Shown here: positions 11,034-37,487 of the stretch, in pieces | How positions within the stretch are numbered: the stretch's first letter is position 1 | How the letters are laid out: every line of letters begins with the position of its first letter | IMG/VR virus record: IMGVR_UViG_3300007351_000001 | DNA length: 64,000 nucleotides | DNA from: a virus | Lineage: Duplodnaviria; Heunggongvirae; Uroviricota; Caudoviricetes | Strand: one strand, 5' to 3' | The notes under the pieces: model-generated | The model's database searches: none | What the model was told of the DNA's origin: nothing | The model's input: the letters and a program-made list of their open reading frames with translations, nothing else | Program-made: the position numbers and the translations under genes

Positions 11034-11599
11034 TGTAGGTCCACCGTTGTCCCGATCGGTGGTCGACCACGCCGTCCGATCGAATCGTCCGACGTTTGTC
11101 GCCGCGCATGCCGGAGCCGATCTGTTGCCGGCGCTCCGTCTGCCGGGCCGTGGCGTGCGACTGCTGTAGGCGCTCCCACAACCGCGCTCGCAGGACGGTG
11201 AGTGTTCTGATGCTGGGAACGCTCCGACTCGATGCGCACGCGCACCTGTGTCGGGCGGTGGGTCATCTGGATAGCGGAGGCGGTCTTGTTGCGGTGCTGC
11301 CCGCCGGGGCCGGACCCCGTGGTCGCGATGACGTCGAGGTCGTCGTCCCGAATGACGAGCTGCGGCGCACTCGGCTCGGCGAGTACGGCGACGGTGATGG
11401 TGCTCGTCTGAACACGCCCGCGCCGTTCGGTCGGCGGCACGCGTTGCCAACGATGCCCGCCCGCTTCGTGCATGAACACAGTCTCGGCGTTTGGTCCGGT
11501 CACGCGTAGGATCGTGCTACCTGACCGCCGGTCGATGACAGTGCAGTCAAAGACAGTGGTGTTGCGCGAGGCGGGCGTAAATGCCCGCTTGATCGTCAA
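11030..11599 (-). CDS. peptide chain release factor RF1-like protein lacking domain 1 (189 aa; GGQ motif, PxT-type tripeptide PPT)
   Basis: FMHEAGGHRWQRVPPTERRGRVQTSTITVAVLAE and DLDVIATTGSGPGGQHRNKTASAIQMTHRPTQVRVRIESERSQHQN align with RF1 domains 2-4. TTG start at 11599; GAAGGAGGAG lies 18 nt upstream. Confidence 0.7.
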   Translation of the reverse strand: MTIKRAFTPASRNTTVFDCTVIDRRSGSTILRVTGPNAETVFMHEAGGHRWQRVPPTERRGRVQTSTITVAVLAEPSAPQLVIRDDDLDVIATTGSGPGGQHRNKTASAIQMTHRPTQVRVRIESERSQHQNTHRPASAVVGAPTAVARHGPADGAPATDRLRHARRQTSDDSIGRRGRPPIGTTVDLQ

Positions 11600-18480: not shown

Positions 18481-18712
18481 CAGCACCGAGTTCCGGCTGC
18501 CGTATGCGGTCGATCGCCTCGCCTCGATTCGTGATCAGTTCCGTCGCGCACAGGGCATTCGCGATGGGCAGCACGTGCCGGCGTGGCAAGCCTACCCGTG
18601 GCTCGTCAAGCAGCGGCTGATCCGGCAGACGACTACCCCGATCATGAAGGTGCAGCTCGCCGTGCTCTGCACACGCCCGGTGGTCAAGCTGACCCCGGTA
18701 AAGCCATCATGA
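18440..18712 (+). CDS. possible small protein overlapping the GT2 3' end (~90 aa)
   Basis: ORF track 18413..18712; start uncertain (GTG). Confidence 0.35.
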   Translation: MRWTIVRALSVGIDSTEFRLPYAVDRLASIRDQFRRAQGIRDGQHVPAWQAYPWLVKQRLIRQTTTPIMKVQLAVLCTRPVVKLTPVKPS

Positions 18713-18998
18713 AGCGGTGCACCGCCATCGTCCGGTGGTAGCCGCAGATCGAGCACTCGCGCAGGTCGGTGTTCGGCATCACGTGCGGCTCGACCACCAC
18801 CCACTGCTCGGGGTGCTTCACCACGTTCATGAGACGCCGGGTCACTTCCAACCTGAAATGCCCACCGAACCCCGAGGCTTTGAGCCAGCGCACGCCGTCG
18901 CGCTGCACGAGCATCAGCTCTTCGCGGAGCCCATCGACCACTGGGCGATAGAGCAGGGCGCCACGCTCTAGCGCAGCGACCAACTCCGCAGCGGTCAT
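18684..18998 (-). CDS. hypothetical protein (104 aa)
   Basis: Protein-like; CSICGYH motif. Confidence 0.55.
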   Translation of the reverse strand: MTAAELVAALERGALLYRPVVDGLREELMLVQRDGVRWLKASGFGGHFRLEVTRRLMNVVKHPEQWVVVEPHVMPNTDLRECSICGYHRTMAVHRFMMALPGSA

Positions 18999-19423
18999 CC
19001 GGTAGGTGGGACGACGTGAAAGCCGGCGTCGCGCACGGCTCGATCGAAACGCTGGTAATCGAGCGGGTGCGCATCGACGCCGCGCCGCGGGTCCGGATCC
19101 ATCGGTGGGTCGAACGTCAGAGCTGCTCCGAACGCATGCGTGAACACCGCAATCATCGGCAGCGAGATCTGCTGCAGCGGCGTCCAGCGGAGCACATCGT
19201 GCGCGAGCGTCACCACGTGCCGGCGCTGTTCAGGCCAGCGATCGAAGGCGACGTTGTCCCGCACGGCAGCAAGGTGCGCCTTGGTGCGCTCGTAGTGGCC
19301 CGTCACGGCGTCCGGGACGATCGTCCGGTAGCCGCTCCACTCGTAGAGTTCGCCGAGCGCACGAGACAGTTCGCCCTGCGCGTCTTCCTCGGAATCGCTG
19401 AAGCTGTCGGCCATCATCCACAC
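18995..19423 (-). CDS. hypothetical protein (142 aa)
   Basis: ORF track, protein-like; 4-nt overlap downstream. Confidence 0.6.
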   Translation of the reverse strand: MWMMADSFSDSEEDAQGELSRALGELYEWSGYRTIVPDAVTGHYERTKAHLAAVRDNVAFDRWPEQRRHVVTLAHDVLRWTPLQQISLPMIAVFTHAFGAALTFDPPMDPDPRRGVDAHPLDYQRFDRAVRDAGFHVVPPTG

Positions 19424-19450
19424 GCCCTTTCCCCACCAGCAGCATCGGTC

Positions 19451-20089
19451 TCAGTTCCCGTCCCAGTCCAAGATCCCGAGCCGCTTGTCAACCATCCACT
19501 GCGCTTCCGCGGAGAGCTGGGGGTAGTTCGAGGGGCGCTGCAACGCAGCCAGCGCGGACGGGGACGGCGTGTGGTGCGTGACGAACTCCGGCAGGTGCTC
19601 CCCGACGATGAAGAGCGACGCCTGCGGGCTCACTTCCTCTGGCCGGCGGATGAACGAGGCCTGGCAGAGGTCGCCGTTCCAGTACGACCGAGCCTGCGCG
19701 ATGTTCTCGTGGAGCCGCTGCTCGCCGGTGTTCAAGTCGCGCTGGTTCCAGATGATCACGCGATCGAGATGCGGCTTGTGGAGCACGACGAAGTCGACGA
19801 GCTGGGGAATCGACCGCGGCTCGACCCACACCCGGTCATCATCGTGCCAGCGCCCGACGACGGTGGCGTAGTCCGCGCCGGCATCGAACGCGGCCTGCAC
19901 CTCCTCGTCGGTCGTATGCAGGCCCTTGGCGAGGATGCGCTTCCACGTCGACGCCTTCGCCTTCCGGACGAGGTCGAGGCTGCCGCCCCACCGAGCATCG
20001 GTGTGTACCGAGATGAGGTCCCCGTGCTGGTGCGCAAGGGCGAAGCGCTCCTCCCAGCTCTCAGGCGCCCGGAAGCCGAACGGGCTCAT
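19451..20089 (-). CDS. TIM-barrel protein resembling indole-3-glycerol-phosphate synthase (TrpC-like), ~212 aa
   Basis: VAEVKTMSPFG...ISVHTDARWGGSLDLVRKAKA...LAKGLHTTDEEVQAAFDAGADYATVV resembles IGPS motifs (IAEIKxxSPS / ISVLTD..F.GS / RKDFI.D..Q..EA...GAD). Confidence 0.5.
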   Translation of the reverse strand: MSPFGFRAPESWEERFALAHQHGDLISVHTDARWGGSLDLVRKAKASTWKRILAKGLHTTDEEVQAAFDAGADYATVVGRWHDDDRVWVEPRSIPQLVDFVVLHKPHLDRVIIWNQRDLNTGEQRLHENIAQARSYWNGDLCQASFIRRPEEVSPQASLFIVGEHLPEFVTHHTPSPSALAALQRPSNYPQLSAEAQWMVDKRLGILDWDGN

Positions 20090-20130
20090 CGTCTTGACCT
20101 CAGCCACGAAGAGCGGCCGTCCCAGCCTGC

Positions 20131-20613
20131 TCACGCGGCCTCCAGTGGCGGCGGTCCGCCGTACGAGTAGGCGCCCACATGGCCGTCGGGGAGTGGCCAC
20201 TGGCGTCCGGACTGTTCATGGCTGATGCTGACGATGGTCGCGCGGATGTTGAAGAAGCGGGCGTCCAGATGCGCGCAGTTGAAAAACGTGCGCATTTCGT
20301 TGATCCACGGTTCGAGCTTCGCATGCGTGACCCGTCCCACGATCACACAGAAGGGCTGGAATGGCTTCAGCTCGTCGTACACACAGAACATCGACGGGAC
20401 GGTGATCCGTCGCTTCAGACGGCCCTGACGCGGCCCAGGCGGGCCGAACACGTCGTGTCGTGGACAGACCGCAGCGACGCGATTCCCCATCCGCAGCAAA
20501 ACCCGCCGCACCGCCCCGTGGTCTCGGCCGTGGCGGTCGACCCGCGGCAGTCGCTCCTGGTCCGTGCGGTACTTCACGTAGAGCGTGCACGAGCGGTTCT
20601 CGAACGACGACAT
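20131..20613 (-). CDS. hypothetical protein (~160 aa)
   Basis: Trimmed to ATG 20611-20613 (MSSFENRSCTLYVKY...); upstream ORF portion is junk. Confidence 0.55.
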   Translation of the reverse strand: MSSFENRSCTLYVKYRTDQERLPRVDRHGRDHGAVRRVLLRMGNRVAAVCPRHDVFGPPGPRQGRLKRRITVPSMFCVYDELKPFQPFCVIVGRVTHAKLEPWINEMRTFFNCAHLDARFFNIRATIVSISHEQSGRQWPLPDGHVGAYSYGGPPPLEAA

Positions 20614-20642
20614 GGGAGGCCAGCGGACCGTCCAGGACCGTC

Positions 20643-21044
20643 TCACCAGACCCAGCCACCAGGCCAGGCGTAGCCGTAGTCGTAGACCCCAGGCTGCGGG
20701 CGGACGATGACGATGCTCGACCCGGTCGCCTCGCACGTCGACTCGCCCGGTGCGCACTGCACCGTTTCCAGCTGGCGGGTACGCCGGCCGTCAGTCACTG
20801 CCGCGGCACCTGGCGGCACCTGCACCACGCTGATCGGCGGCTGTGTCTGCAGGACCGGGAAGTACCCACAGCCGGTCGCAAACACGCCGAGGTAGATGAT
20901 GCCAGCCACGACGGCGGCAATGCCGAACGGGTGATCTGTGAGCACGCTCCGCGCGACAGCGGCCCACGACGGCTCCTGGGGTAACGGTTCGTCTCGTCTG
21001 ACGATGACCATCCGACCATCGACCCTCTTCCACTCGTGGCACAT
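20643..21044 (-). CDS. membrane protein (133 aa, one TM helix)
   Basis: FGIAAVVAGIIYLGVFATG hydrophobic segment. Confidence 0.5.
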   Translation of the reverse strand: MCHEWKRVDGRMVIVRRDEPLPQEPSWAAVARSVLTDHPFGIAAVVAGIIYLGVFATGCGYFPVLQTQPPISVVQVPPGAAAVTDGRRTRQLETVQCAPGESTCEATGSSIVIVRPQPGVYDYGYAWPGGWVW

Positions 21045-21071
21045 GCTGAGCCCTCCCGGCCGAGGACTCTA

Positions 21072-21356
21072 TTACAGGTCGGAAGATCCCTGCAACAGCA
21101 AAAAGACGCCCTCTGCGGCCAACGCGTTGGCCGTGACGTCCATCGTTGCGTCTTCGTACCGATCATCCAGCCACTGCTGACCGCAGCCGTAGCAGATGCC
21201 GGCGGGGTAGGTGATCACCTGACTGACATCACCCCAGTAGATCTTGGACTGCGTCTCGTGGAACTCGGTGCTATCGCTCTCACCACAGTTCGGACAGCGG
21301 GCTCGCCGTGCCGCCGCTTGCTCCGCGGTTTCCAGATCCCCCGTGTCGAGCGACAT
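21072..21356 (-). CDS. zinc-ribbon protein (94 aa; CPNCG...CYGCG)
   Basis: ATG at 21354-21356. Preceded on the same strand by a 14-codon uORF (MFGIGMLCGLFLAW) whose stop overlaps this start (TGATG). Confidence 0.6.
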   Translation of the reverse strand: MSLDTGDLETAEQAAARRARCPNCGESDSTEFHETQSKIYWGDVSQVITYPAGICYGCGQQWLDDRYEDATMDVTANALAAEGVFLLLQGSSDL

Positions 21357-21429
21357 CACCAGGCGAGGAAGAGACCGCAGAGCATGCCGATCCCGAACAT
21401 CACCCAGGACCGGTGCCGGACGTGCCACG

Positions 21430-21785
21430 GCTGCTGCGCTGGAGGTGGTGCCACCCGTAGCCGACGCGGGAAGTGCACGACCTGGTGCATGCCTCGATCT
21501 AGCGCACTTCTCGGCCGTCCGTCCAATGGCCCATTGAAGGAGCCATTGAAGGGGGCACTGTATGCGCCCTTCAATGGCCCAATACAGACAAGGCAGCTCC
21601 CTCTGAGTATTTAGGCAAACGCCTCGCTGCGCTCCCGCCTTCGGCTCCGCTCCGCTCGCAGGGGTTCTCCTGATGGCGCCAGGGGCGCGCAGCGTAAGCG
21701 TAGCGCCCCCGCGCCCTACATATGCTTTTTTTGTTCTCTCTGAGTATTTTTAGGCAAACAGGAGGGGGTGTGGGGGAACCGCCGG
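21430..21785. repeat. complex intergenic region with iteron-like 11-mers, a duplicated AT-rich 20-mer and GC palindromes
   Basis: CCATTGAAGG(G) at 21531 and 21543, its reverse complement at 21567, and partial CCAATGG. CTCTGAGTATTT(TT)AGGCAAAC at 21601-21620 and 21736-21760. T7 run at 21726-21732. Confidence 0.6.
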
Positions 21786-22463
21786 TCAGCCCCGTTTCGC
21801 GTCGAGTTTCGCCGTCAGCTCGACCTCGGCGGCGAGGCCGGCCGGGTCCGCGAACAGATCGCGGAAGGCGGTCTTCGGCAGCGGGATCTCCTGCAGCATC
21901 TCGATGTACGGATCGACCGAAAGCCACCGGTCGCTGTCGATGATGGTGATCTGCAGCGCAGAGCGGAAGCTGAGCTTGGTCCGGGTGATCGCCTCCCACA
22001 CCAGCCGGCGCCGACGCCATTCCGCCGCGGTGACGTCCTTGGGCCGGTCTGTGTGGTTCCAGTAGTCGAAGCGGGTCAGCTCCGGCATCTCGTCCATGAA
22101 CGCGAACACGTCCTCGAACAGCCAGTCGCTGATCGGCCGGAGGTAGTGTGTGCGGCGATGCTCGTGCACGATGACGTGGCAGTCGAAGTGGAAGGGGTTA
22201 CGGCGCGGGGACTTCAGCTGGGCCAAGTACTGCTGCCGCACGAAGTCGTGGACGTGCTCTAGCCGCGCCATTTCTTCCCCGACCGTCTTCATACGCTCGA
22301 CGATCTCGGGGAGGTTTGGTTTCAGCTCCCGTGTGAGGTCTTGGTAGAGCTTGCGGAGGATCGCCTGAGCGTACCGCTCGCCCTCGCGCTGGATCGTGCG
22401 CACGACTGACCAGAGTTGCCGGCTGTTGGTGAGACGGTAGGCTGGTGTGATCACCACGCTCAT
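21786..22463 (-). CDS. hypothetical protein (225 aa)
   Basis: Long protein-like ORF; ATG at 22461-22463. Confidence 0.7.
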   Translation of the reverse strand: MSVVITPAYRLTNSRQLWSVVRTIQREGERYAQAILRKLYQDLTRELKPNLPEIVERMKTVGEEMARLEHVHDFVRQQYLAQLKSPRRNPFHFDCHVIVHEHRRTHYLRPISDWLFEDVFAFMDEMPELTRFDYWNHTDRPKDVTAAEWRRRRLVWEAITRTKLSFRSALQITIIDSDRWLSVDPYIEMLQEIPLPKTAFRDLFADPAGLAAEVELTAKLDAKRG

Positions 22464-22482
22464 CGTCGTCTCCAGGAAGAAG

Positions 22483-22557
22483 AGCCCGCGGAGGGAGTCG
22501 AACCCCCGGCCCGCTGCTTACGAAGCAGCCGCTCTGGCCAGACTGAGCTACACGGGC
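22483..22557 (-). tRNA. tRNA-Thr (anticodon CGT)
   Basis: Acceptor GCCCGTG/CGCGGGC, D-arm TAGCTCAGTCTGGCCAGAGC, anticodon stem GCTGC/GCAGC loop TTCGTAA, T-loop TTCGACT. Confidence 0.8.
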
Positions 22558-22570
22558 GTGTGAAAGGGAG

Positions 22571-22642
22571 TGGGCTCGGCGAGAGTCGAACTCGCACCAC
22601 TCGGCTTAAAAGGCCGATGCTCACCAACTGAGCTACGAGCCC
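22571..22642 (-). tRNA. tRNA-Lys (anticodon TTT)
   Basis: Perfect acceptor GGGCTCG/CGAGCCC, anticodon stem TCGGC/GCCGA loop CTTTTAA, T-arm GCGAG-TTCGACT-CTCGC. Confidence 0.8.
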
Positions 22643-22867
22643 AGGGAAGGGCTCGCGTCATTTCAGCCGAGTCATCATGAGGGAAGGAAGGGGTACGCCT
22701 CCAAACCGCTGCCACCAGCCCGAGAACGGGAGCCTGACGCCCCGTCGCGTCGCATTACTGCGCGCATCAGCTATCTGGTGGATTTGGCGCATCGTTCACC
22801 GTTCGGCGTTCAATCGTGCGATCAAGCAACCCTGCGCTTTGCGGCTATGAGCTTTTCGATCCGTTGG

Positions 22868-22940
22868 GATCAAGTACGGGAGTTGAACCCGTTACCTTCT
22901 GGTTTCAGGCCAGACGCTCTACCAAATGAGCTAACTTGGG
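22868..22940 (-). tRNA. atypical tRNA-like gene (loop CCUGAAA: C33, anticodon UGA or shifted GAA; two mismatches at top of acceptor stem)
   Basis: Canonical 73-nt layout with D-arm GCTCATTTGGTAGAGC and T-arm ACGGG-TTCAACT-CCCGT. Pairs 1-72 and 2-71 are C-T and C-A. Class I body despite a Ser-type anticodon. Confidence 0.45.
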
Positions 22941-22990
22941 TATGCCACGCTTCTCTCGCTTCGCTGCCGAAGGCGTACCGCGGTCTCCTC

Positions 22991-23539
22991 TCAGTCGTCG
23001 ATTGTGATCTTGGTCGTCGCGTTCAGGAGCGAGAGCTTGCCGTCGAGATCACCGAGCGTCTTCTCGATGGCCTCGATCTCGGCCGTCAGCTCCGACTCCT
23101 TGACGTTGATGATCACAGTCTCTTCCGGTTTACCAGCGCTCGTGTCGCCGGCCTGTACGACCTGCCGCCCGCGCGCCTGGTTGCGCGTGTGCTGGATTGT
23201 CTGGAAGAGCTGCGCCAGGTACTGCTTCTGGCCCTCGGAGATCTCCCGGCGCCAGGTGAGCCACCCCGCCAGCGTGCGCGTCCGCTCGCCGAGTGTCAGC
23301 GTGACCTCTTGGTTCTTCGCCTGGACCGCGGTGCGGATCCGGATCACGCGCTCTTCGAGGTCGTTGATCGCCTGCCGCTCGCGCCGGATGAACTCGGCCG
23401 ACCCGCCGTCGATGTCCTCCATCGGATCGCGCAACTGCCCGCCGCGTGCCAGGTACGGGATGATCGACTCGCGCTTCTTCCCGAGCCGGGCTTCGATCGT
23501 CTTGATCTCGGCCAGGGCCTCCGTGATCGTCGTCTCCAT
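22991..23539 (-). CDS. hypothetical coiled-coil protein (182 aa)
   Basis: ATG 23537-23539 with GAGGAGGAAGG RBS; METTITEALAEIKTIEARLGKK... Confidence 0.65.
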   Translation of the reverse strand: METTITEALAEIKTIEARLGKKRESIIPYLARGGQLRDPMEDIDGGSAEFIRRERQAINDLEERVIRIRTAVQAKNQEVTLTLGERTRTLAGWLTWRREISEGQKQYLAQLFQTIQHTRNQARGRQVVQAGDTSAGKPEETVIINVKESELTAEIEAIEKTLGDLDGKLSLLNATTKITIDD

Positions 23540-23553
23540 TTTTGCCTTCCTCC

Positions 23554-23739
23554 TCACAGGTCGAGCTTGCGGGGTGGCCGACTCTCGAACAGCTCCTGGA
23601 GCTTCACCGATTCCACCTCTCCGGAGGTGAAGGCGGCGCACACACGTTCGACCAATGCCCGCCCCGCAAGCCGCGCGGCGACGTCGTCCGTGCCGGGCAC
23701 GCGCAACCGGACGACCAGTTGGTAGTTGTTCCCGTCCAT
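23554..23739 (-). CDS. hypothetical small protein (61 aa)
   Basis: ATG 23737-23739 (MDGNNYQLVVRLRVPG...). Confidence 0.5.
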   Translation of the reverse strand: MDGNNYQLVVRLRVPGTDDVAARLAGRALVERVCAAFTSGEVESVKLQELFESRPPRKLDL

Positions 23740-23910
23740 GAAGCTCCGTGGCGTAGCAGACCTCTTAGAAGTTGTCACGGTCTTTTGCCGGTGCTACGAC
23801 AGGCGTCGAAAGTTTTCTCCCACTCGCGTGGGCGTTTTTGGCTCTGGGGAGCATCTTACTAGGTAGGGGACTTGTGGTGGCTTGCGGCGGGGGAGGGCGG
23901 AAGGTGCAGG

Positions 23911-23940
23911 TTGGCACGCTCTTCGCACCTTTGTACCGGT
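23911..23940 (+). promoter_or_regulatory. sigma54-like conserved promoter motif, copy 5 (TTGGCAC-gctct-TCGCAC-CTTTGTACCGGT)
   Basis: TGGCAC 23912-23917, TCGCA 23923-23927. 25 nt later come GGAGGAAG RBS and the ATG of the MoxR gene at 23966. Confidence 0.6.
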
Positions 23941-23965
23941 AAGCCCTTAGCTGCGGAGGAAGCGT

Positions 23966-25183
23966 ATGCCAGATCAGAGTCTCAGTCTCGTCGAACTGCT
24001 CACCCGTTTCGCGAGGCTGGAGTACAACGTCCTCATGACGGGGCACACCGGCGTCGGCAAGACGACGGTGGGGCTCCACGTGTGCGAGCGCATCTGCTCG
24101 TACCAGGTGAAGTTCTTCAATGCGGCCATCATGGACCCGCAGGTCGAGCTGCTCGGGATCCCGACCCCAGACCTCGACTTCGAGCGCCAGCGCGAGCGGA
24201 TCTTGCGGGTGTTGATCGACTTCGGGTTGAAGGGGACCTTCCGGCCCTTGGAGAGCGAGACGCCGACCGAGACCTACTCGCGCGTCACGCAGCTGGTCGA
24301 CACCGCGTTCGACCGGCCGAAGTCGCTGCAGTTCCTGCGCCCGAAGTTCATCGACGAGTGCGACGTGTTCTTCGTCGACGAAATCAACCGCGCCGAAGTG
24401 CAGACGCTGAACGGCATCATGGAGGCGATCCAGTTTGCCACGGTCATGGGCGATCGGCTGCCGCGCCTCAAGATGACCTGGGCGACGCGCAACCCCGACG
24501 GCGACGACATGGGCTACCACGTCCAGCGCATGGACCCGGCCTTGATCCAGCGGTTCCGGACCTTCGTCGAGGTCGACGCGCAGCCGGCGGTCGACATCCT
24601 CGTTGCGTGCGGGCCGATGCGCGAGGCAGTCGCTCGCAACCTGATCGAGTGGTACACCGCGCTGCAGGAGGGTGTGAAGCTGCACCTGCCGCCACGCCGC
24701 TTGGAGTACATCGGCAAGGCGTTCGAGGATGGGCTGCCGCTGGAGTTCGCCATCCCACCGTTGGTCGACGTCACCAAGCTGCCGCTCAAGAATCTGGAGA
24801 CCATGCTGCGCAGCGCGACCAAGTCGACGCTGGTCAGCAAGGATGACCTCTCGACGCCGGAGAAGCGCGCGGCCTTGATCGGGCGCATGAACGACGGCAC
24901 GGCCAAGGGGCTCAGTGTCACCGTGCAGGTGCAGAAGATCCTCTCGCACCCGACGGTGAAGCTGCACAAGTTGATCGAGTACGTCGAGGTCGTCGAGGCG
25001 ATGCGTTTGGAGACGCGTGTCGGTATGTGGGCCGCGATCGGCACGCGCCTGCTGAATCAGGTACCGGAGCCGGCCAAGTACGACTTCTCGCAGTTCGGTG
25101 CGCAGGAAGAGAGTGCGCGCCGTCTCTTCCGCGTCGCGATCCGCGACGGGTTCTACCAGGACGTGAAGCCGACGGACATCTGA
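23966..25183 (+). CDS. MoxR-like AAA+ ATPase (405 aa)
   Basis: Walker A GHTGVGKTTV, Walker B FFVDEINRA, MoxR-like C-terminal helical region. Confidence 0.85.
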   Translation: MPDQSLSLVELLTRFARLEYNVLMTGHTGVGKTTVGLHVCERICSYQVKFFNAAIMDPQVELLGIPTPDLDFERQRERILRVLIDFGLKGTFRPLESETPTETYSRVTQLVDTAFDRPKSLQFLRPKFIDECDVFFVDEINRAEVQTLNGIMEAIQFATVMGDRLPRLKMTWATRNPDGDDMGYHVQRMDPALIQRFRTFVEVDAQPAVDILVACGPMREAVARNLIEWYTALQEGVKLHLPPRRLEYIGKAFEDGLPLEFAIPPLVDVTKLPLKNLETMLRSATKSTLVSKDDLSTPEKRAALIGRMNDGTAKGLSVTVQVQKILSHPTVKLHKLIEYVEVVEAMRLETRVGMWAAIGTRLLNQVPEPAKYDFSQFGAQEESARRLFRVAIRDGFYQDVKPTDI

Positions 25184-26763
25184 TGACCATCGACTACTCC
25201 AAGATCCACCTGACCGGTGGCAGCCAGCACGAGCTGTGGAAGATCTCCCGGCCGTGTGACTGGCGCTGGCTGCCGCCGGGCTGGGATGACCCGCAGCGGG
25301 TCGCCTGGCGTCAGGAGCGCTTCGAGCAGGCGTTGGAGACGATTGACGCCGCTGCGGAGCACGACCTGTGGATGCAGCTGCGCTTCGCACAGCTCGGGAC
25401 GCCGAAGTTCCAGGCGCTCCCGATGCCGACGACGGCCGTCGGCCTGCGCCCGAACGGGCAGATCGAGTACGTGTTCCACCCGCGCTTCTTCGATCTCTGC
25501 GAGCCGGAGCGCTTGGTGTTCTCGATCGTCCACGAGCGCTTCCACGTCGACCTCGACCACCTGCGTCGCGGCATCGGCAAGCGGCGCAACTTGTGGAACA
25601 TCGTGATCGACATCGTCGACAATGAGTACTGTCACGCACTCGGCTTCCTGCCGCCGGAGATTGGCCGCGACTACTGGTCAATCGAGAAGCTGCTGCCCGG
25701 CTTCCGTGGCCTTGGGGAGGATGTCGGGGCCGTGGCGGACTTCCGCACGGAGTTCGACGCGACGCGCCTCTACGACTTCCTGTTGTCGATCATCGAGAAG
25801 ATCACCCTGCCGCCGTTCGCCGCGTTCGCTATGGACATAGGGATCGGCATGCCGATCCCGGATGAGGATGCCGACGACGACGAGTCGATACCGGGTCCTG
25901 GCGGGTCGGACGAGGGCGAGGGCGAGGAGGACGACGATGAGGGGAACGATCTTGGTCCCCCAATCTCGTGGTCGGACGTCGAGGAGGACCCACAGGATCA
26001 CAACGACTATCAGGACGACGTCGCGGCCAATGGCGGCGCCAACCCGTTTGGGGGTGGTGGTGGGGGTGCCGGCAAGGGCCGGGGAACCTTCGGCGACTCG
26101 ATCATGCCGGCAGTGGCCAAGTCGCGTTCGCACACCTGGCTCGACAACTTGGCTGATCGCGTGCACGGCGAGGTTGTGCGTCGCGTCGAGAAGCAGTGGG
26201 CGATCCCGCCGCGTCGGCTGGTCGGGAGCGGACTCTACCCGCATGTGCTCCTGCCGTCAGTTCGCCGCACCATCGTGCGCACCAAGTCGGTGGTGCTGAT
26301 CGGCGATTGCTCGGGCTCGATGGCCGGCGTGATCCCGAAGATGCTGCGCCTCTTCTCCGAGATGATCGACCACTTCACCAGCGGCCACATTCAGCGCAAC
26401 CCGGTGAAGGTCGATTCGTACGCGTTCGACGATGGGGTGTACCACTGGCCGAAGGAACTGATTCAGCGCGGCCGTGCTCCGCACTCCGGCGGGACCAACT
26501 TCCAGCGCGTGGCAAACTTCGTCGAGGGTCGTGACGTCACGCTGGAGTCCGGCCACGGCGGCGCTGGCATCCGCCTGCGGCAGCACCCCGACCTGGTCAT
26601 CGTGGTCACCGACGGTGAGGATCGCGCGCCGAAGATCAAGTACCCGGACAACTGGGTCTGGCTCTGCGTTGAGGAGCAGGAGTACCCTGCCTACGTCAGG
26701 CGCGACACCAAGGGCATCGGGCAGGTCGTGATGTATGGCGACGTCTACGACGGTTCCTTCTGA
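25180..26763 (+). CDS. DUF2201-type protein: N-terminal putative HExxH metallopeptidase-like domain plus C-terminal VWA domain with MIDAS (527 aa)
   Basis: ATGA overlap with MoxR gene; IVHERFHVDLDHL (HExxH); VVLIGDCSGSMAG (DxSxS MIDAS); long acidic linker DEDADDDES...GEGEEDDDEGND. Confidence 0.75.
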   Translation: MMTIDYSKIHLTGGSQHELWKISRPCDWRWLPPGWDDPQRVAWRQERFEQALETIDAAAEHDLWMQLRFAQLGTPKFQALPMPTTAVGLRPNGQIEYVFHPRFFDLCEPERLVFSIVHERFHVDLDHLRRGIGKRRNLWNIVIDIVDNEYCHALGFLPPEIGRDYWSIEKLLPGFRGLGEDVGAVADFRTEFDATRLYDFLLSIIEKITLPPFAAFAMDIGIGMPIPDEDADDDESIPGPGGSDEGEGEEDDDEGNDLGPPISWSDVEEDPQDHNDYQDDVAANGGANPFGGGGGGAGKGRGTFGDSIMPAVAKSRSHTWLDNLADRVHGEVVRRVEKQWAIPPRRLVGSGLYPHVLLPSVRRTIVRTKSVVLIGDCSGSMAGVIPKMLRLFSEMIDHFTSGHIQRNPVKVDSYAFDDGVYHWPKELIQRGRAPHSGGTNFQRVANFVEGRDVTLESGHGGAGIRLRQHPDLVIVVTDGEDRAPKIKYPDNWVWLCVEEQEYPAYVRRDTKGIGQVVMYGDVYDGSF

Positions 26764-27685
26764 TCGCATCACGCCGGTCAAAGCGACCGGCACTTTCAAG
26801 CCGGCGCTGTGGAACGACCGCGCGTACGTCGCCGAGGAGAAGCTCGACGGTGTTCGCGCGGTCGTGTACGCCACTGCGGCCGGCGCTCGTGTCATGGTTG
26901 GCGAGCGCGACATCACCGCCCAGGTCCCGCACCTGGGCGTGTTGCACGTGCCTGGTCTCGTGCTCGACGGTGAGCTAGTGCAGAACGCGCTGAGAAGCCC
27001 CGAGACCGACCACGTGCCGGGGATCGGCTCGGCCTCAGTCACCGGGATCGTGAACAGTTCGCCCGGTCGCGCCATCGAGACGCAGAAGCGCGACGGGTTC
27101 CTCAAGTTCTATGCCTTCGACTGCCTGCATGTGGGGCGCGTGGGGCGACTCAACATGCGCACGCAGTCGTGGGAGCGCCGTCGCGCTGCCTTGGTCGACG
27201 TTCTGGCTGGGCTACCACGCCCGATTGGCGACAACTACATCGCCGTCCCGGTCGCTGTACCGCCACTCACACGCGAGTTCTACCAACGCGTCGTGCTACT
27301 CGGGGGCGAGGGGGTGGTACTCAAGCACCGCGAACAGTCCTACACCGGCGTTGGGTGGGTGAAAGTGAAGTTCCGGACCACGTTGTCGGTAGTGATTGCC
27401 GGCATCAACCGTGACCGAGAATCGGTCGCCATCGCGGTCTACGAGGACGGCAAGCTCTCCTCGGTTGGTGATTGCGGGATCAAAAACACGCAGCTTCGTG
27501 CGCAGGCACAGTTGAAACCGCACACCTTGGTCGGTCGTGTGCTCGACGTGCAGGCGTATGCGGTCAGTACCCGCGGCAAGCTGCGCAACCCGATCTGGGA
27601 CCGTCTGCGGCCGGATCTCTTTCCGAAGGCGATCACGCGCGACAAGCTGATCGCGGACTTCGAGCAGGCGGTGGAGCACGCGTAG
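26735..27685 (+). CDS. ATP-dependent DNA ligase (316 aa)
   Basis: Motif I EEKLDGVRA (KxDG), LVLDGELV, VVLKHREQSY; overlaps previous gene by ~29 nt. Confidence 0.85.
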   Translation: MATSTTVPSDRITPVKATGTFKPALWNDRAYVAEEKLDGVRAVVYATAAGARVMVGERDITAQVPHLGVLHVPGLVLDGELVQNALRSPETDHVPGIGSASVTGIVNSSPGRAIETQKRDGFLKFYAFDCLHVGRVGRLNMRTQSWERRRAALVDVLAGLPRPIGDNYIAVPVAVPPLTREFYQRVVLLGGEGVVLKHREQSYTGVGWVKVKFRTTLSVVIAGINRDRESVAIAVYEDGKLSSVGDCGIKNTQLRAQAQLKPHTLVGRVLDVQAYAVSTRGKLRNPIWDRLRPDLFPKAITRDKLIADFEQAVEHA

Positions 27686-27907
27686 ATGACAGGGACTGTG
27701 GTAGTGGGGTTGGTGGTGGCGGTGCTGCAGCTCGTGGCGTCGATTATCGCGATGGCTGCGGCCGTACGGACGGTTCGTGCCACGCGAGCAGTGAAGATCG
27801 AAGTCGATCGCTTGATGGTGATGCGCTCGGAGATTGAGCTGGTCCGCCTCGAAATCGAGAGCGAGCTAGCGATGCACTACCAACCGCCGGCCGCGCACCT
27901 GCACTAG
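27686..27907 (+). CDS. small membrane protein (73 aa)
   Basis: ATG immediately after ligase stop; VVVGLVVAVLQLVASIIAMAAAV TM helix. Confidence 0.5.
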   Translation: MTGTVVVGLVVAVLQLVASIIAMAAAVRTVRATRAVKIEVDRLMVMRSEIELVRLEIESELAMHYQPPAAHLH

Positions 27908-27946
27908 GCGCTTCCTCCACTCTCCGCTTGAGTCCACCAAAGGCCT

Positions 27947-28624
27947 GTGCCAGACTTCCCGACCGCAGGCGTAGGGAGGGTGGCGGTGGTGGAGCACGAC
28001 GGTCGGCCACGTGATGGTCTCACGTATCGGTTGCCCATCGAGCAGATCCTGGCAGAGCAGGGTGCGGCGAAGCGCAGCCGCCTCTTCCGCCAGTACACCG
28101 ATGCCACCTACGCGTGGATCGACGAGGACTTGGAGTTCTTGCGAGCGTTCGAGGAACTCCCGCAAGGTCAGGACGTCGGCGTGCTGCGCAACATCGCCAG
28201 CATGCGCGGCGCGGAGAGCCGGCGCGATCTCGAACGCGAGTATGATCGGCTGAAGCTCCCACACCAGTGGACCGTCAACTGCCTGTGCGTCGACGGTCCC
28301 ATGCTGGCGCTCAACGAACGCGCGCTCGAAGCCTACATCGAGGCGAACTGCCCCATCGCCGTCGGACCGTTCCTCGACTACCTCTGGCGCAAGCAGTGGC
28401 GCATGGTCCCGACGCCGGAGTGGGAAGCCGTGGTCTACAACCAGTTGATGATCGGCTCGCGCCGCGTGTTCGTCCAGGACCAGGTCTACTACTTCCTCCT
28501 CCTCCCGGCGCCATACCTGATCGACGTGGGGTTCATCGAGTCTGCGGAGAAGCGTGAGGCGATCGTCTACGGGTGGTCGCCGATTGACTTGCCGCCAGTG
28601 ACCTGGCAGCAAAAGCGCCGGTGA
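27947..28624 (+). CDS. hypothetical protein (~215-225 aa; start uncertain, GTG candidates at ~27986-27989 after GGGAGGG)
   Basis: Protein-like ORF. Confidence 0.6.
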   Translation: MPDFPTAGVGRVAVVEHDGRPRDGLTYRLPIEQILAEQGAAKRSRLFRQYTDATYAWIDEDLEFLRAFEELPQGQDVGVLRNIASMRGAESRRDLEREYDRLKLPHQWTVNCLCVDGPMLALNERALEAYIEANCPIAVGPFLDYLWRKQWRMVPTPEWEAVVYNQLMIGSRRVFVQDQVYYFLLLPAPYLIDVGFIESAEKREAIVYGWSPIDLPPVTWQQKRR

Positions 28625-28628
28625 CGAG

Positions 28629-29006
28629 ATGCTTGACGAGGGGGGTCGTCAGTTCGCGCTGCATCGCGGCTTGCTGCAGTGGATTGAAGTCGTCGAGGAT
28701 CGTGGCGACACCGTCGTGATCAACCATCCCCAGCGTGGGGAGATGGTCACGCCGCGCGAGCTGTACGAGTGGGATGTCGGTTCGCTCGACGAGTACTTGG
28801 ATCGCCAAGTCGTGGTTGAGTCGCCGTTCGACAGCTCCGCGTTCGTCGTCGAGGCGTCCCCCATCGACTTGATCACGGACGGTGACGAGGACGAGCCGAC
28901 TGCGCTGCGCGAAGCGTTGCCAGACGCCGCGTCGTACGAGCACCTCCTCTCGCCAACTGAGCGCCGCTTCATGGCGAAGGGGTGGACGATCATTCCCTTC
29001 AAATGA
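28629..29006 (+). CDS. hypothetical acidic protein (125 aa)
   Basis: ORF track, protein-like. Confidence 0.6.
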   Translation: MLDEGGRQFALHRGLLQWIEVVEDRGDTVVINHPQRGEMVTPRELYEWDVGSLDEYLDRQVVVESPFDSSAFVVEASPIDLITDGDEDEPTALREALPDAASYEHLLSPTERRFMAKGWTIIPFK

Positions 29007-29151
29007 GCTATTGCGAATGATGCTCAATGAGTAGCAAGAACGCTTGCGCAAGATGAGATAATCAGTAGTATTTACAGGCGAGCATCAACCTGATAGTGCT
29101 CGTCGTCCTGTCATCAACTCAAGGGTGCTGACGTGTGTGGGAGAGGGTTGC
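29007..29151 (+). promoter_or_regulatory. AT-rich intergenic region with sigma70-like promoter elements upstream of the sigma-factor gene
   Basis: TTGCGC-N16-TAGTAT near 29040-29068; contains AGTAGTATTTAC related to the GAGTATTTTTA elements at 21.6 kb and 37.47 kb. Confidence 0.4.
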
Positions 29152-29703
29152 ATGGGAGAGTTGGATCGGGACGAGATTGCCGCGCGGTATGAGTACGTCC
29201 ACGAGCAGCCGAACATCGTTCGCTACCTGGTAGCGCAAGCGATCGTTGCGCACCGCCGGAGTACGGTGCGCCTCGACGTCGACGACTACCTGCAAGCGGA
29301 GTTCCTCGCGTTGTGGGCGACGTGCCGTCGCATTGACCCGCGCGTCGAACTCGCGCGCTTCATCGGGTACTTGAAGGCCGCGTCCGCGGTTGCGATTCGT
29401 CAGGCGCAGCGCAAAGGCTTGCGTGAGACGCGCTTGCAGGATCCGTGGATCGAGGCGTTGAGCGACGTGGTGGCGGACGGGCGCCTCACCCCGGAGCAGC
29501 TCACGATCTACCGCGACCTGGTGCGCAAGCTCGGCTCCTTGGTGCGCGTGGAGCGAGACCCGTACCTGGAACAGGTCTATGATGCGCAAGTGGCGCCGCT
29601 CTTTGGGGCCGCAGCCGGTCACCTACCAGGCACGAAGAAGCGGGTGCGACGACACGTGGGCCGGTTGCTGTCCATGGTCACGACGCTCACCGCGCAGCAG
29701 TAA
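29152..29703 (+). CDS. ECF-type sigma-70 family sigma factor (183 aa)
   Basis: Region 2 DVDDYLQAEFLALW...FIGYLKAASAVAIRQAQRKG; region 4-like GTKKRVRRHVGRLL; GGGAGAGGG RBS. Confidence 0.65.
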   Translation: MGELDRDEIAARYEYVHEQPNIVRYLVAQAIVAHRRSTVRLDVDDYLQAEFLALWATCRRIDPRVELARFIGYLKAASAVAIRQAQRKGLRETRLQDPWIEALSDVVADGRLTPEQLTIYRDLVRKLGSLVRVERDPYLEQVYDAQVAPLFGAAAGHLPGTKKRVRRHVGRLLSMVTTLTAQQ

Positions 29704-29712
29704 GGGCGGGGC

Positions 29713-31176
29713 ATGCTCGCGTTCAACTACGGACCGGTCTTCACTACCGCCGTAGGGACCGAACTCGAACTCGGGACGGTGAGCCAGCTGCTCACGCCAG
29801 ACCCCGAGCAGCCGAGCTTGCTCCTGGGCTCGTACCTGCCGACGGGGCTCTTGTCGCACGTGTGCACGCGGCTCGACATGATCGACGTGCCGTACGTGCT
29901 GCACAACACGCCGGCCGAGGGCTCGATCTACGACGTGCCGCCGGACTACCTCGCCGGCATCACCCTGCGCGAGGAGCAGCGGATGCTCATCCGCAAGGGG
30001 CTCTACCACCAGCGCGGGTTGATCGAGAGTCCGACCGGCAGCGGCAAGACCGAGCTGACGTGCGCGATCGCGCAGTGGCTTGACGGGCGCGTGCTCGTCT
30101 TGGTGCCTGGTACCAACTCGCTGCACCAGACCGCGGCCCGCTTCAAGAAGCGGGGCCTCGATGACGTCGGCATGTTCGGTGACGGCAAGCGTGACCTGAA
30201 CCATCGCGTCATCGTCGCGATCGTTGCCTCGGTCTACCAGGCGATCGGTCGGCGCAAGGCGGACGTGCTGCGGATTCTCTCTGAGTTGCAGGCGGTACTG
30301 CTCCTCGAATGCCACCACTTGCAGGCGATGACTTGGCAGACCGTCTGTCAGAACACCGAGGCGCCATACCGCCTCGGGCTTTCGGCGACGCTCTTTGAGA
30401 AGGGCTCACAGCCGACCACGCATGGCGACTACGCGCTGATCGGGCAGACCGGGCCGGTGGTGGCCAAGCTCCCCGACCATCTGCTCATGAACCGCGGCCA
30501 CCTGGCGACGCCGTGGGTGCACACATTGCGGGTCTTCCAGCCCGAGCGCACCGACGAGCAGAAGAAGTGCGACAACTGGATCCAGCAGCAGCGCGAGTGC
30601 ATCGTGCACAACAAGCCGCGCAACACCATGATCGTCCAAGTCGCGGCGCCGCTGGTGCGCGAGGGCTTCAAAATCCTCACGTTGGTGAACGTGCTCAAGC
30701 ACGGTGACACGCTCGGGAAGATGGCCTCTGAGGCCGTGCGGCCGTTGGAGGTCCAGTTCTACCACGGCGGGTCGACGCTCGACGTCTACCGGGATGGGAT
30801 CCGGGTGCGGCGCGAGAAGCTGCCGATCTACAAGCTGGTCGACAAGCTCGAAGCGGAGCCGGAGTTCTTCCTGATCGGCTCACCGGCCGTGAAGGAGGAC
30901 GCGGACTTCCCTGGTGCCAACGTGCTCGTGGCGGCAGGAGCCGGCCGCGGGTACCGCGGCGTGATTCAACGCACCGGCCGCGTGCTGCGTGCGAAGCAAG
31001 GCACCAACATCGGCCACCTGGTCGACTTCAAGGACTACACCGCCTGGATGTTGAAGGCGCAGTCCGACGCGCGCCGCAAGACCTACGAGGCGCGTTACGC
31101 TGGTGCTGAGCGGTTGCGGTTCCTCGATCATCGGACGCCGGCTGACGTCGTGGAGGCGATTCGGCACGCCGCGTGA
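29713..31176 (+). CDS. SF2 DNA helicase (DExH box; UvsW/Res-subunit-like), 487 aa
   Basis: Walker A SPTGSGKTE, motif II LLLECHH, motif III LGLSATLF, motif VI VIQRTGRVLR. Confidence 0.85.
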   Translation: MLAFNYGPVFTTAVGTELELGTVSQLLTPDPEQPSLLLGSYLPTGLLSHVCTRLDMIDVPYVLHNTPAEGSIYDVPPDYLAGITLREEQRMLIRKGLYHQRGLIESPTGSGKTELTCAIAQWLDGRVLVLVPGTNSLHQTAARFKKRGLDDVGMFGDGKRDLNHRVIVAIVASVYQAIGRRKADVLRILSELQAVLLLECHHLQAMTWQTVCQNTEAPYRLGLSATLFEKGSQPTTHGDYALIGQTGPVVAKLPDHLLMNRGHLATPWVHTLRVFQPERTDEQKKCDNWIQQQRECIVHNKPRNTMIVQVAAPLVREGFKILTLVNVLKHGDTLGKMASEAVRPLEVQFYHGGSTLDVYRDGIRVRREKLPIYKLVDKLEAEPEFFLIGSPAVKEDADFPGANVLVAAGAGRGYRGVIQRTGRVLRAKQGTNIGHLVDFKDYTAWMLKAQSDARRKTYEARYAGAERLRFLDHRTPADVVEAIRHAA

Positions 31177-31224
31177 TGACGAGAGGGTTCGGTCGATGAC
31201 TGGGTTGACGTGGTGGAGGATGGG

Positions 31225-32631
31225 ATGGCCGATGCACCGCAGTATCCGTACGGTCCGCAGTTCCAAGACAAAGTCCTAGCGCTGATGATCCGCGAGCCGG
31301 AGTTCTTGCCGGCGCACGCGGGGATCATCCAGCCGAACTACTTCGACAGCGACATTCACTCGTCGATGGCGCGCATTCTCCTCGACTACTACGAGGAGCG
31401 CGGGTACCCGCCGGTCGCCGACACGGTGAATATGCTGATCACCAACTACATCGAGGCGCACAAGGTCGAGAGCAGCCAGGGTCATCTCCTGCGTGATCTA
31501 GTGCCGGCGCTGCAGAAGGTCGACCTCGCCAACCGCGTCGACATCATCGAGGCCGTGAGCAACTTCGGCCGCAGCAAGCAGCTCGAACAGCTCTGCTTCC
31601 AGCTGACGCAGCGCTTGGCGAAGGGAGAGAAGCCGGACGACATCTGGGAACACATCGACCGCTCGCGGACCACCGGCTCGGCCATCGGGGACATCGGCAT
31701 GTACCTCGCCGACGCGTTGCCTGGCGCCCCGGAGTTGGTGCACGCCGACAACCTCTACAGCGACATCGGGAAGATCTCGACCTACATCGGCCGACTGGAC
31801 AAGCAGTTCAACAACGGCATGGGCCGCAAAGAGCTGGGCGTCATCATGGGCTACACTGGCTTCGGCAAGTCGCTGATGCTGGTGAACCTCGGCGCCGCGG
31901 CGCTCTTCCAGAAGCTCGGCGTGGTGCACTTGTCGATCGGCGAGCTGGAAGAGATCGACCTCCTGGCGCGCTACGCCGCCCGCATCGCTGAGACCTCGAT
32001 CAAGGACCTCGCGCGCCTCGAACAGGTGTCGGTGGCGCTCTATCAGCGCCGCATTGCCGAGATCATCCAGCTCTACGGCGGGCGCGGCTACGCCAAGTAC
32101 TTCTCGCCCGGCACGAAGGTGGCGACGCTGCGTTCGTACCTCTCACGGCTGCGGTCGGAGAAGCACTTCGAGCCGCACCTTCTGGTGATCGACAACGCCG
32201 ACGACCTGCGACCGTCCTCGGCCGCGTTTCAGGCCGAGTCGTCCTACGAGCACTTGGGCCAGGTCTTCATCGAGCTGAAGGCGCTCGCGCACGACTTCAA
32301 CGTCGCCATCTGGTGCGACAGTCAGACCAACCGTTCTGGCAACAAAACTGACGTCGCTGACCTCGACGTCATCGCCGACTCGCACAAGAAGGCACGCAAG
32401 GCCGACATCGTCATCTCGGTGAACCAGAGCAAGCGCGAGCGCGAGCTGAGCGTGCTGCGCCTGGCGCTGGTGAAAGCTCGCCGGTACTCGCGCGCCGACT
32501 CGATCATCTGGTGCCGCGTCGACTACGAGCGGATGCTGGTCAAGGAGTGCGAGCGCCCGCCCGATGAGATCCTGAAGGCGCCGGTCGGTGCCCCGATTCC
32601 GCCAGAGTTCCTGCCGAACTTCCACCACTGA
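31225..32631 (+). CDS. DnaB-like replicative helicase (469 aa)
   Basis: Walker A GYTGFGKS, Walker B LLVIDNADDL, H3/H4-like motifs; GGAGGA RBS. Confidence 0.85.
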   Translation: MADAPQYPYGPQFQDKVLALMIREPEFLPAHAGIIQPNYFDSDIHSSMARILLDYYEERGYPPVADTVNMLITNYIEAHKVESSQGHLLRDLVPALQKVDLANRVDIIEAVSNFGRSKQLEQLCFQLTQRLAKGEKPDDIWEHIDRSRTTGSAIGDIGMYLADALPGAPELVHADNLYSDIGKISTYIGRLDKQFNNGMGRKELGVIMGYTGFGKSLMLVNLGAAALFQKLGVVHLSIGELEEIDLLARYAARIAETSIKDLARLEQVSVALYQRRIAEIIQLYGGRGYAKYFSPGTKVATLRSYLSRLRSEKHFEPHLLVIDNADDLRPSSAAFQAESSYEHLGQVFIELKALAHDFNVAIWCDSQTNRSGNKTDVADLDVIADSHKKARKADIVISVNQSKRERELSVLRLALVKARRYSRADSIIWCRVDYERMLVKECERPPDEILKAPVGAPIPPEFLPNFHH

Positions 32632-32671
32632 GTTTCGCGTCATGTTTCATGTTTCACGTGACACGGTACGG
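32632..32671 (+). repeat. short tandem ATGTTTC repeat with perfect palindrome TCACGTGA
   Basis: ATGTTTCATGTTTCACGTGACACG directly upstream of the HNH-like gene. Confidence 0.3.
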
Positions 32672-34017: not shown

Positions 34018-34029
34018 TCGCATGCACGA

Positions 34030-37470: not shown

Positions 37471-37487
37471 GTAAAAATACTCAGAGG
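37471..37487 (+). promoter_or_regulatory. GTAAAAATACTCAGAGG element: third copy (reverse orientation) of the CTCTGAGTATTTTTA motif from 21.6-21.76 kb
   Basis: Lies 11 nt upstream of ATG 37499; TAAAAAT resembles a -10 hexamer. Confidence 0.45.

Follow-up and report, generated by a model that had tools for sequence, protein, structure and literature searches.

The DNA analysed here is a 64-kb window (65% GC) of an uncultured phage deposited in IMG/VR, and the element under study is the non-coding stretch at 21491-21785, here called the leader, together with a short motif that occurs twice in the leader and once in a distant gap. A JGI contig of 241,426 bp carries a protein identical to one product of the window, indicating that the window is part of a genome of jumbo-phage size. 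According to a gene map based on GC content at third codon positions (GC3), the leader is located within a leftward gene block (18684..23778, minus strand), flanked by a 225-aa gene (21786..22463) on one side and by small genes (21072..21490) on the other. Three of the ten tRNA genes in the window lie directly upstream of the leader region (22482-22940), and the change to rightward transcription occurs at 23779-23965, away from the leader. The replication module occupies 29.7-43 kb on the plus strand and encodes a ResIII helicase, DnaB, a Toprim primase, a PolA-UDG fusion, a gp32-like protein, a 5'-3' exonuclease and RecA.

Read 5' to 3' on the minus strand, the leader consists of a C-rich block (21785-21760), motif copy W1, an A7 run, a GC-rich hairpin (21716-21675), a T-free purine-rich tract, motif copy W2, an array of 10-mers and an invariant stretch of 62 nt that ends at ATG 21490. 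These features are listed below with the third motif copy, W3, and the first two genes downstream; comparisons refer to the single relative that was found.

21760..21785, minus strand: conserved C-rich block that separates W1 from the stop of the 225-aa gene, CCGGCGGTTCCCCCACACCCCCTCCT; 25 of 26 positions identical to the relative.
21738..21759, minus strand: W1 (motif copy 1), GTTTGCCTAAAAATACTCAGAG, with the core AAATACTCAGAG at 21738-21749; the relative reads GTTTGCCTAAACCCTCAGAGG.
21621..21735, minus strand: invariant inter-motif block, identical at 111 of 114 positions, with an A7/T7 run (21726-21732), CATATG and the GC-rich hairpin (21675-21716).
21600..21620, minus strand: W2 (motif copy 2), GTTTGCCTAAATACTCAGAGG, with the core at 21601-21612; the relative has the same TA to CC change.
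21525..21581, no strand assigned: 10-mer array, with CCATTGAAGG at 21531 and 21543 (plus strand) and inverted at 21568-21577, and the palindrome CAATGG-C-CCATTG at 21525-21537.
21491..21552, minus strand: invariant 62 nt upstream of the ATG, including GGACGGACGGCC and a GAGG one nt before the ATG; no differences (0/62).
21467..21513, minus strand: start-codon hairpin, CGAGAAGUGC / GCACUUCCCG, whose 27-nt loop holds a GAGG resembling a Shine-Dalgarno (SD) sequence and AUG 21490.
21356..21490, minus strand: 44-codon gene, MHQVVHFPRRLRVAPPPAQQPWHVRHRSWVMFGIGMLCGLFLAW, with a C-terminal hydrophobic segment.
21072..21356, minus strand: zinc-ribbon gene of 94 aa, whose ATG overlaps the TGA of the small gene; weak match to a YgiT/MqsA-type finger.
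37471..37487, plus strand: W3 (motif copy 3), GTAAAAATACTCAGAGG, 11 nt before ATG 37499; the relative reads GCAAACCCTCAGAGG.

Conservation of the leader and concerted change of its motif

An earlier note on this DNA, made from the sequence alone, had pointed to a duplicated AT-rich element of about 20 nt in the leader with a further copy before gene 37499. This observation was borne out: the duplicates cover 21597-21620 and 21736-21759, and their 12-mer core AAATACTCAGAG occurs exactly three times in the 64 kb, at 21601 and 21738 on the minus strand and at 37475 on the plus strand, 11 nt from the ATG. All three copies are intergenic and oriented as the local transcription, with W3 situated in the 53-nt gap between the PolA-UDG gene and gene 37499. 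When two mismatches were allowed, shuffled controls gave a mean of 1.06 matches to the core. The signal takes the form (T)AAA(AA)-TA-CTCAGAG(G), which is compact, asymmetric and 13-16 nt long. CTCAGAG itself occurs 12 times in the window, and its A-rich 5' part is found only at W1, W2 and W3; the nine other cores, eight of them within genes and one intergenic, all lack it (0/9). Furthermore, 12-nt islands with at least 10 A/T number only five in the 64 kb, all of them intergenic and with W1 and W3 among them. The others are the T7 run of the leader and a tandem pair, GAACTTTTTTTCA / GAACTTTTTTCA, at 34029-34040 and 34048-34059 on the plus strand, 19 nt apart in the gap of 95 nt that precedes the PolA-UDG gene; this pair may be another class of transcription signal. 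Two of the five islands thereby fall in the leader.

The same note had counted 29064 as a partial copy. That site is oriented opposite to its gene and has no CTCAGAG core, and is read by eye as TTGCGC-N17-TAGTAT. The sequence lies at 29040-29075 (plus strand), ahead of gene 29125, and is sigma-70-like by eye, although a stricter scan made no call. Its gap, 29007-29124, has the lowest GC content of any gap in the window (46%). Nor is the leader the lowest-GC stretch of the left half, as had been stated: 21491-21785 is 61% GC, and lower values are found in the windows 22801-23200 and 28801-29200 and, besides 29007-29124, in the gaps 37446-37498 (51%) and 34018-34112 (55%).

Protein searches covering 5.8 billion proteins identified a single relative, represented by two Logan contigs from one sample, SRR24775931, on which all conclusions on conservation are based. 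Contig L001 carries homologs of the genes flanking the leader (72-75% aa identity), and contig L026 carries the end of PolA and a homolog of gene 37499 (94% aa identity). The non-coding sequence 21491-21785 is 94% identical to the relative, against 73-78% for the flanking genes at the DNA level. Because divergence between the two genomes is strongly mosaic, with about 94% nucleotide identity in the replication module (PolA and a 167-aa gene) and 73-78% in the leftward block around the leader, third codon positions were taken as the neutral baseline. Divergence at these positions is 18.5-23.6% in the replication module and rises to 34-47% beside the leader. Even at the lowest baseline of 18%, the differences in the inter-motif block (3/114, P<=4e-7) and in the 62 nt before ATG 21490 (0/62, P=5e-6) are significantly too few, whereas neither the inter-tRNA spacers nor the one that follows the 133-aa gene showed conservation relative to the same genome. 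This under-divergence, together with the unconserved spacers nearby, indicates a constraint that is specific to the leader element and acts on its nucleotide sequence. Mosaic exchange was considered as a cause of the conservation and rejected, since both adjacent genes have diverged and sub-blocks within the leader vary. About 300 nt of non-coding DNA are defined in this way as being under unusually strict constraint, which no known RNA family or origin type explains.

The relative also carries a 34-nt insertion (922-955 of L001) that is not present in the window. A perfect 11-bp hairpin (CAGCTTGGTGG...CCCACCAAGCTG) is formed by this insertion, which immediately follows the stop codon of the 225-aa homolog and closely precedes the conserved C-rich block. 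Such a terminator-like hairpin upstream would fit a conserved block that has its own start signal.

The change in the motif itself was more telling. All three sites read AAATACTCAGAGG in the window and AAACCCTCAGAGG in the relative: the homologs of W1 and W2 are both GTTTGCCTAAACCCTCAGAGG, and that of W3, on the other contig, is GCAAACCCTCAGAGG. An identical TA to CC change has accordingly occurred at 3/3 homologous sites up to 16 kb apart, with the flanking AAA and CTCAGAGG unaltered. By our estimate, the chance of three independent identical double changes through neutral drift is of the order of 1e-7, taking 24% as the upper bound of third-position divergence in the replication module, the lowest baseline. 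Neither local duplication nor gene conversion was accepted as the cause, as both leave the distant third site unexplained. The same change at sites 16 kb apart indicates that the motif is a functional signal tied to a co-evolving trans factor, and we infer that a factor specified by the phage reads the motif and that its specificity probably co-evolved with the sites. It is a rare case in which sequence alone points to a specific factor as the reader of a short phage motif, with three sites changed alike between sister genomes. The forms AAATACTCAGAGG and AAACCCTCAGAGG would represent a ready-made orthogonal pair of cis signals, and the motif offers a route to finding its reader, be it an RNA polymerase (RNAP), a sigma factor or a regulator, in an unsampled high-GC phage lineage with genomes of about 241 kb.

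Searches for further examples returned nothing related. With the covariance models of Rfam 15, only tRNAs reached the gathering score, and the best hit in 21300-21900 had E=2.3, with eukaryotic models only. Among deposited phages and plasmids (megablast, tblastn and sensitive blastn) there was either no match or only PolA matches of at most 27% identity. Protein-based and DNA-pattern scans of IMG/VR gave no relative, pattern scans of GTDB genomes gave nothing, and the two-anchor pattern GTTTGCCTAAA-N112-141-GTTTGCCTAAA in JGI metagenomes gave 24 loci, all of them unrelated low-GC tandem repeats. Protein searches with the two flanking genes returned only the contig of the window and the one relative, and exact-sequence look-ups of four window proteins found none on record. 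A literature search on the motif strings yielded unrelated primers only, with no record of motif or leader. Phage cis-regulatory signals that co-evolve with their reader are a well-known kind of element; this particular motif and leader are without a match in Rfam, in deposited sequences or in the literature.

Promoter-like reading of the motif and its rivals

We tentatively favor, at somewhat less than even confidence, the reading of the region as a conserved non-coding regulatory leader of the leftward operon in which the motif would most likely be the core of a phage-specific promoter. The motif would be recognized by a phage RNAP or a sigma-like factor encoded outside the window. W1 and W2 could then act as tandem promoters of the leftward operon, which comprises the 44-aa membrane peptide, the zinc-ribbon protein, a putative lipoprotein and downstream genes; W3 could be an internal promoter of the replication module, in front of the SSB gene cluster. 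The earlier note had offered a structured leader, with a promoter or operator shared with 37471, as its second choice. The orientation-specific motif and the strong constraint on the leader bring this alternative much closer to the evidence. Two of its details did not hold: an upstream open reading frame (uORF) acting as leader peptide, and the membership of 29064.

The T7 promoter consensus is about 21-23 bp long, with a conserved element at -7..-1 (CACTATA-type) and an initiating G run. The motif shares with the promoters of the T7, T3 and SP6 single-subunit RNAPs a compact, asymmetric and orientation-specific form with an A/T-rich 5' part. Its variable dinucleotide lies directly 5' of CTCA, presumably as do positions -11/-10 in T7 (GACTCA) and T3 (CCCTCA), and the AAACCCTCA of the relative resembles what we take to be the T3 sequence, TAACCCTCA. 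In T7-like phages, five promoter positions co-vary with three RNAP residues (PMC11880802), and the principle that a few specificity positions change together at all sites is also seen here, with TA to CC at 3/3 (principle from PMC11880802). In contrast to T7-like promoters, the conserved CACTATAGGGAGA-type initiation half is missing and CTCA is followed by GAGG; in the six sites of window and relative, common sequence is limited to (T)AAA(AA)NNCTCAGAG(G) and does not continue past its end. This phage also differs from T7-like systems in having three sites in 64 kb instead of one per operon, and in a genome of about 241 kb instead of about 40 kb. No single-subunit RNAP (PF00940) was found among the large proteins of the window, which covers 64 kb of those 241 kb.

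Several observations weigh against a promoter. The T7-type initiation half is missing, and the 64 kb contain only three sites. Among the roughly 50 proteins of the window, which covers 64 kb of the contig of about 241 kb, none was recognized as an RNAP, a sigma factor or a helix-turn-helix (HTH) protein. The motif is absent from two divergent operon-start gaps, so it is not a general promoter. The -35 and -10 hexamers of sigma-70 promoters are spaced by 16-18 bp; a scan for such promoters gave 0 sites in 20900-24100 and 0 in 24000-43900. The comparison, moreover, involves a single relative. By hand reading, a TANNNT is not kept in the relative's version of the motif. Two further candidates were dismissed: a sigma-54 spacing on reading the sequence, and a T4-late TATAAATA-type element because it is lost in the relative. 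The 225-aa neighbor was considered as a candidate motif reader; its structure prediction had a predicted local distance difference test score (pLDDT) of 39, too low to use, and a PDB sequence search with it returned noise only.

The same properties of the motif would suit an operator or stoperator for a phage DNA-binding regulator, in which a monomeric repressor binds the asymmetric site and blocks initiation or elongation, and the 10-mer array is a second set of operators. In that case the leader would serve to control transcription instead of starting it. We consider this unlikely, but it accounts for an asymmetric site of about 13 nt that is co-oriented with transcription in 3/3 cases and lies in short intergenic gaps. 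Two 1-nt indels cancel out, so that the cores of W1 and W2 lie 137 bp apart in both genomes; this distance corresponds to about 13.0 helical turns, and such exact spacing suits cooperative binding. The stoperators of Cluster A mycobacteriophages (L5, Bxb1) are likewise 13-bp asymmetric sites, mostly in one orientation and in short intergenic gaps, whose consensus tracks the repressor (PMC6550527; PMC9283540), and their consensus shifts in concert between related phages (PMC6550527), so that motif and stoperators have in common an oriented, phage-specific asymmetric site. They have no sequence similarity, however, and stoperator-bearing genomes contain up to about 30 sites (PMC6550527), compared with 3 in the 64 kb here. 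Furthermore, no repressor, HTH, integrase or other lysogeny gene was recognized in the window, the gene content (replication, NAD salvage and RtcB in a genome of about 241 kb) does not suggest a temperate phage, and in GC-rich DNA an AT-rich island would more typically mark a melting site than an operator.

Alternatively, the motif may act in RNA, either as a processing site for a phage endoribonuclease or as an element of translation initiation or a translational operator, similar to the start-associated sequences (SAS) of Cluster K mycobacteriophages. The motif always has the orientation of the transcript and ends in an SD-like GAGG; W3 precedes ATG 37499 by 11 nt, and by hand reading start codons follow W1 (ATG-TAG) and W2 (a TTG mini-open reading frame) at 8-15 nt. 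SAS and their extended form (ESAS) are asymmetric 13-mers in one orientation with an SD-like core, found in non-structural gene regions and in a subset of cases preceded by inverted repeats (PMC3203893); like the motif, they are repeated elements whose reader has not been identified. Nevertheless, we regard an RNA-level role as improbable. SAS lie 3-7 bp upstream of the start codons to which they supply the SD sequence (PMC3203893), whereas W3, the only copy near a start, is 11 nt away with a separate GGAG nearer the ATG. Neither W1 nor W2 stands before a conserved gene: after W1 comes ATG-TAG, and the frame of 6 codons that follows W2 shows non-synonymous change in the relative. No shared hairpin presents the motif at the three sites; a common structure of this kind was sought by inspection and not seen, and the motif has no sequence similarity to SAS.

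Anatomy of the leader and the replication-origin question

The inter-motif block contains, in addition to the T7 run and the GC-rich palindromes that the earlier note had correctly reported, a T-free purine-rich tract with three GAGCG units at about 21621-21660. Hand reading revealed no conserved open reading frame (ORF) across the block, and its folding was no better than that of shuffled sequences on either strand (z -0.4 and -0.75). The block is therefore constrained in sequence, but not via a notably stable fold. A new small non-coding RNA gene on either strand, in or around the invariant block between W1 and W2, would account for tRNA-level conservation (97%) without an ORF, for the location of the few substitutions in predicted unpaired stretches and for the nearby tRNA cluster, and a bulged hairpin directly before U7 on the plus strand (about 21700-21733) could terminate an antisense RNA. 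We judge such a gene to be distinctly improbable, given that the folding does not exceed that of shuffles, that Rfam gave no match even at E<=5, that two-sequence alifold found no covariation, that the terminator scan did not call the hairpin, and that the collections searched held no homolog.

Downstream of W2, CCATTGAAGG is present in three copies within 47 nt and nowhere else exactly in the 64 kb; the repeats reported earlier are real, at 21531, 21543 and, inverted, 21568-21577. On the minus strand, the array consists of one CCATTGAAGG followed by a degenerate copy and two CCTTCAATGG(CT) units with a 12-nt period. In the relative there are three full tandem copies and one degenerate copy, compared with two tandem copies in the window. 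The inverted repeat described before as a hairpin with a 12-bp stem does exist, with a different length: its 16-nt arms pair at 15/16 positions around a loop of 5 nt. Its outer part is lost in the relative, where 11/16 pairs remain and the changes are not compensatory (hand count), and the array-to-ATG distance is 40 nt in both genomes. In the array, it is the 10-mer unit that is conserved; the long stem is not.

Between W2 and the start of the ORF, folding exceeded that of shuffled sequences in either genome (z -2.8 and -3.3), and the start-codon hairpin is present in both minimum-energy folds. Folds of the whole region were undistinctive (z -1.5 and -2.5), and two-sequence alifold again gave no covariation. 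Coding of the W2-to-ATG stretch was considered in view of an open frame and in-frame indels in both genomes; it was rejected, as the changes fall mostly at second codon positions, the 62 nt are unchanged, and the GC3 of 21491..21552 in the frame of the ORF is 64% (hand count), which is non-coding-like. If the region is a regulatory leader with phage-specific promoters, the one inverted and two or three tandem CCATTGAAGG units downstream of W2 might form an operator-like protein-binding array or alternative hairpins, in the transcript or in DNA, and the start-codon hairpin, by enclosing the ribosome-binding site together with the start codon of the small gene, would add a second, translational level of control.

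The first choice of the earlier note, a replication origin with iterons and an AT-rich unwinding element, gains no support. Iteron origins typically possess at least 3-4 direct repeats of about 17-22 bp in helical phase, an adjacent AT-rich element and an initiator (Rep/O-like) gene. As in lambda ori, P1 and plasmid iterons, the leader has direct repeats with an inverted copy and short A/T runs, and as in transcription-primed origins it has tandem promoter-like signals before a G-rich tract. Its repeats, however, are half the usual iteron length and few, being 10-nt units with a 12-bp period in two full copies (three in the relative) plus one degenerate and one inverted copy. There is no extended AT-rich unwinding element in this 61% GC stretch, where the AT-rich pieces are the T7 run and islands of 12-17 nt. 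No initiator family was matched in Pfam, PHROGs or NCBIfam by the neighboring genes (225 aa, 44 aa, zinc ribbon and 133 aa), most of which have no family at all. The GC-skew check that had been proposed showed no switch at the leader: skew follows gene orientation, with plus-strand gene blocks alike on both sides (+0.031 versus +0.027 to +0.036). The cumulative skew reaches its minima at 14.3 and 23.7 kb, where gene orientation switches, and not at 21.5 kb. Phage replication often proceeds without skew, so that an origin retains a small probability.

An origin in which CCATTGAAGG units are iterons and the A/T runs the unwinding element is very improbable in our assessment. It would draw on the direct and inverted repeats, whose copy number of two versus three between relatives recalls iteron or operator sets, on strong sequence conservation without a stable RNA fold, which suits a DNA-level function, and on the phage's own DnaB, primase and PolA. 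Against it stand the short and few repeats, the lack of AT-rich sequence beyond about 17 nt and of a skew signal, the failure to recognize an initiator family among the neighboring genes, and the position of the leader 8 kb from the replication module in an opposite transcription unit; moreover, the motif recurs at 37475, 16 kb away in the gap between the PolA gene and the next, with none of the other leader features. The T7 primary origin and T4 oriF/oriG are transcription-primed phage origins (through an R-loop for T4). In a refined version of the origin, the tandem promoter-like motifs would similarly give a priming transcript through the G-rich block, the T-free purine-rich tract downstream of W1 yielding G-rich RNA. 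In a broader form, to which we assign a low probability, W1 and W2, helically in phase, would form with the invariant T-free G-rich block a transcription-primed origin or other DNA-level machine served by a new phage RNAP/promoter pair (the TA-CC switch) in an unsampled high-GC jumbo lineage, or the block would be a new unstructured regulatory RNA.

Small genes of the operon and other features of the window

The 44-codon gene differs from its homolog at 4/1/16 sites in codon positions 1/2/3 and by an in-frame 3-nt indel, and this pattern indicates that 21356..21490 is a real protein gene; its GC3 is 86% (hand count). Its first 10 codons show no synonymous change relative to the other genome, and it could start at GTG 21478 instead of ATG 21490. 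The 14-codon uORF of the earlier note is the 3' end of this gene and under protein-level selection. The annotation is corrected accordingly, from a supposed uORF to a real gene for a 44-codon, putative membrane peptide. A leader-peptide attenuator, in which translation of a short regulatory ORF governs a terminator or antiterminator further on, was thus not supported, because the 14-codon frame belongs to a real gene, and a terminator scan found no terminator after it. The overlap of TGA and ATG at 21356, where the zinc-ribbon gene begins, was found as described. In the relative (L001 1385-1441) the zinc-ribbon gene has an internal deletion that leaves a remnant of 18 codons, in which the start and the C-terminal FL(V/L)LQGS..L end are retained, indicating that it is dispensable for the leader element. 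The 133-aa product encoded further downstream (20643-21044, minus strand) carries at its N terminus a hydrophobic stretch that closes with ...GVFATGC and resembles a lipoprotein signal. To judge from these sequences, the leftward operon, with its 44-aa membrane peptide and putative lipoprotein, may encode envelope-acting proteins for lysis or exclusion.

The divergent gap 23779-23965 contains two terminator-like hairpins with T runs at 23789-23840 (plus strand), CCCACTCGCGTGGG + T5, and no plus-strand gene ends there. The word TCCCACTCG/CGAGTGGGA is repeated in four gaps left uncalled in the gene map (11806, 14000, 23818 and 39611). Two other gaps of about 1.1 kb each, 9928-11029 and 46135-47276, have a coding-like GC content of 66-67% and no gene called by the GC3-based filter; they may hold genes of atypical composition or interrupted frames.

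A 189-aa release-factor-like fragment at 11030-11599 (minus strand) matched Pfam RF-1 and the end of PCRF, and NCBIfam prfA (8e-33) and prfH (1.7e-15), both far below cutoff. The same phage carries an RtcB RNA ligase gene at 50492-51925 (plus strand); the two recall RtcB-PrfH ribosome-repair pairs, yet they are 40 kb apart. A 408-aa TnpB-like protein is encoded at 48603-49829 (plus strand), with matches to phrog_506 'transposase' (1.8e-5) and, below cutoff, to NCBIfam guided_TnpB (1.7e-8). The tRNA at 202-275 (minus strand) was given a four-base anticodon 'ctgg' (unassigned) by ARAGORN and scored 52 bits in Rfam as an ordinary tRNA; its anticodon loop may be unusual.

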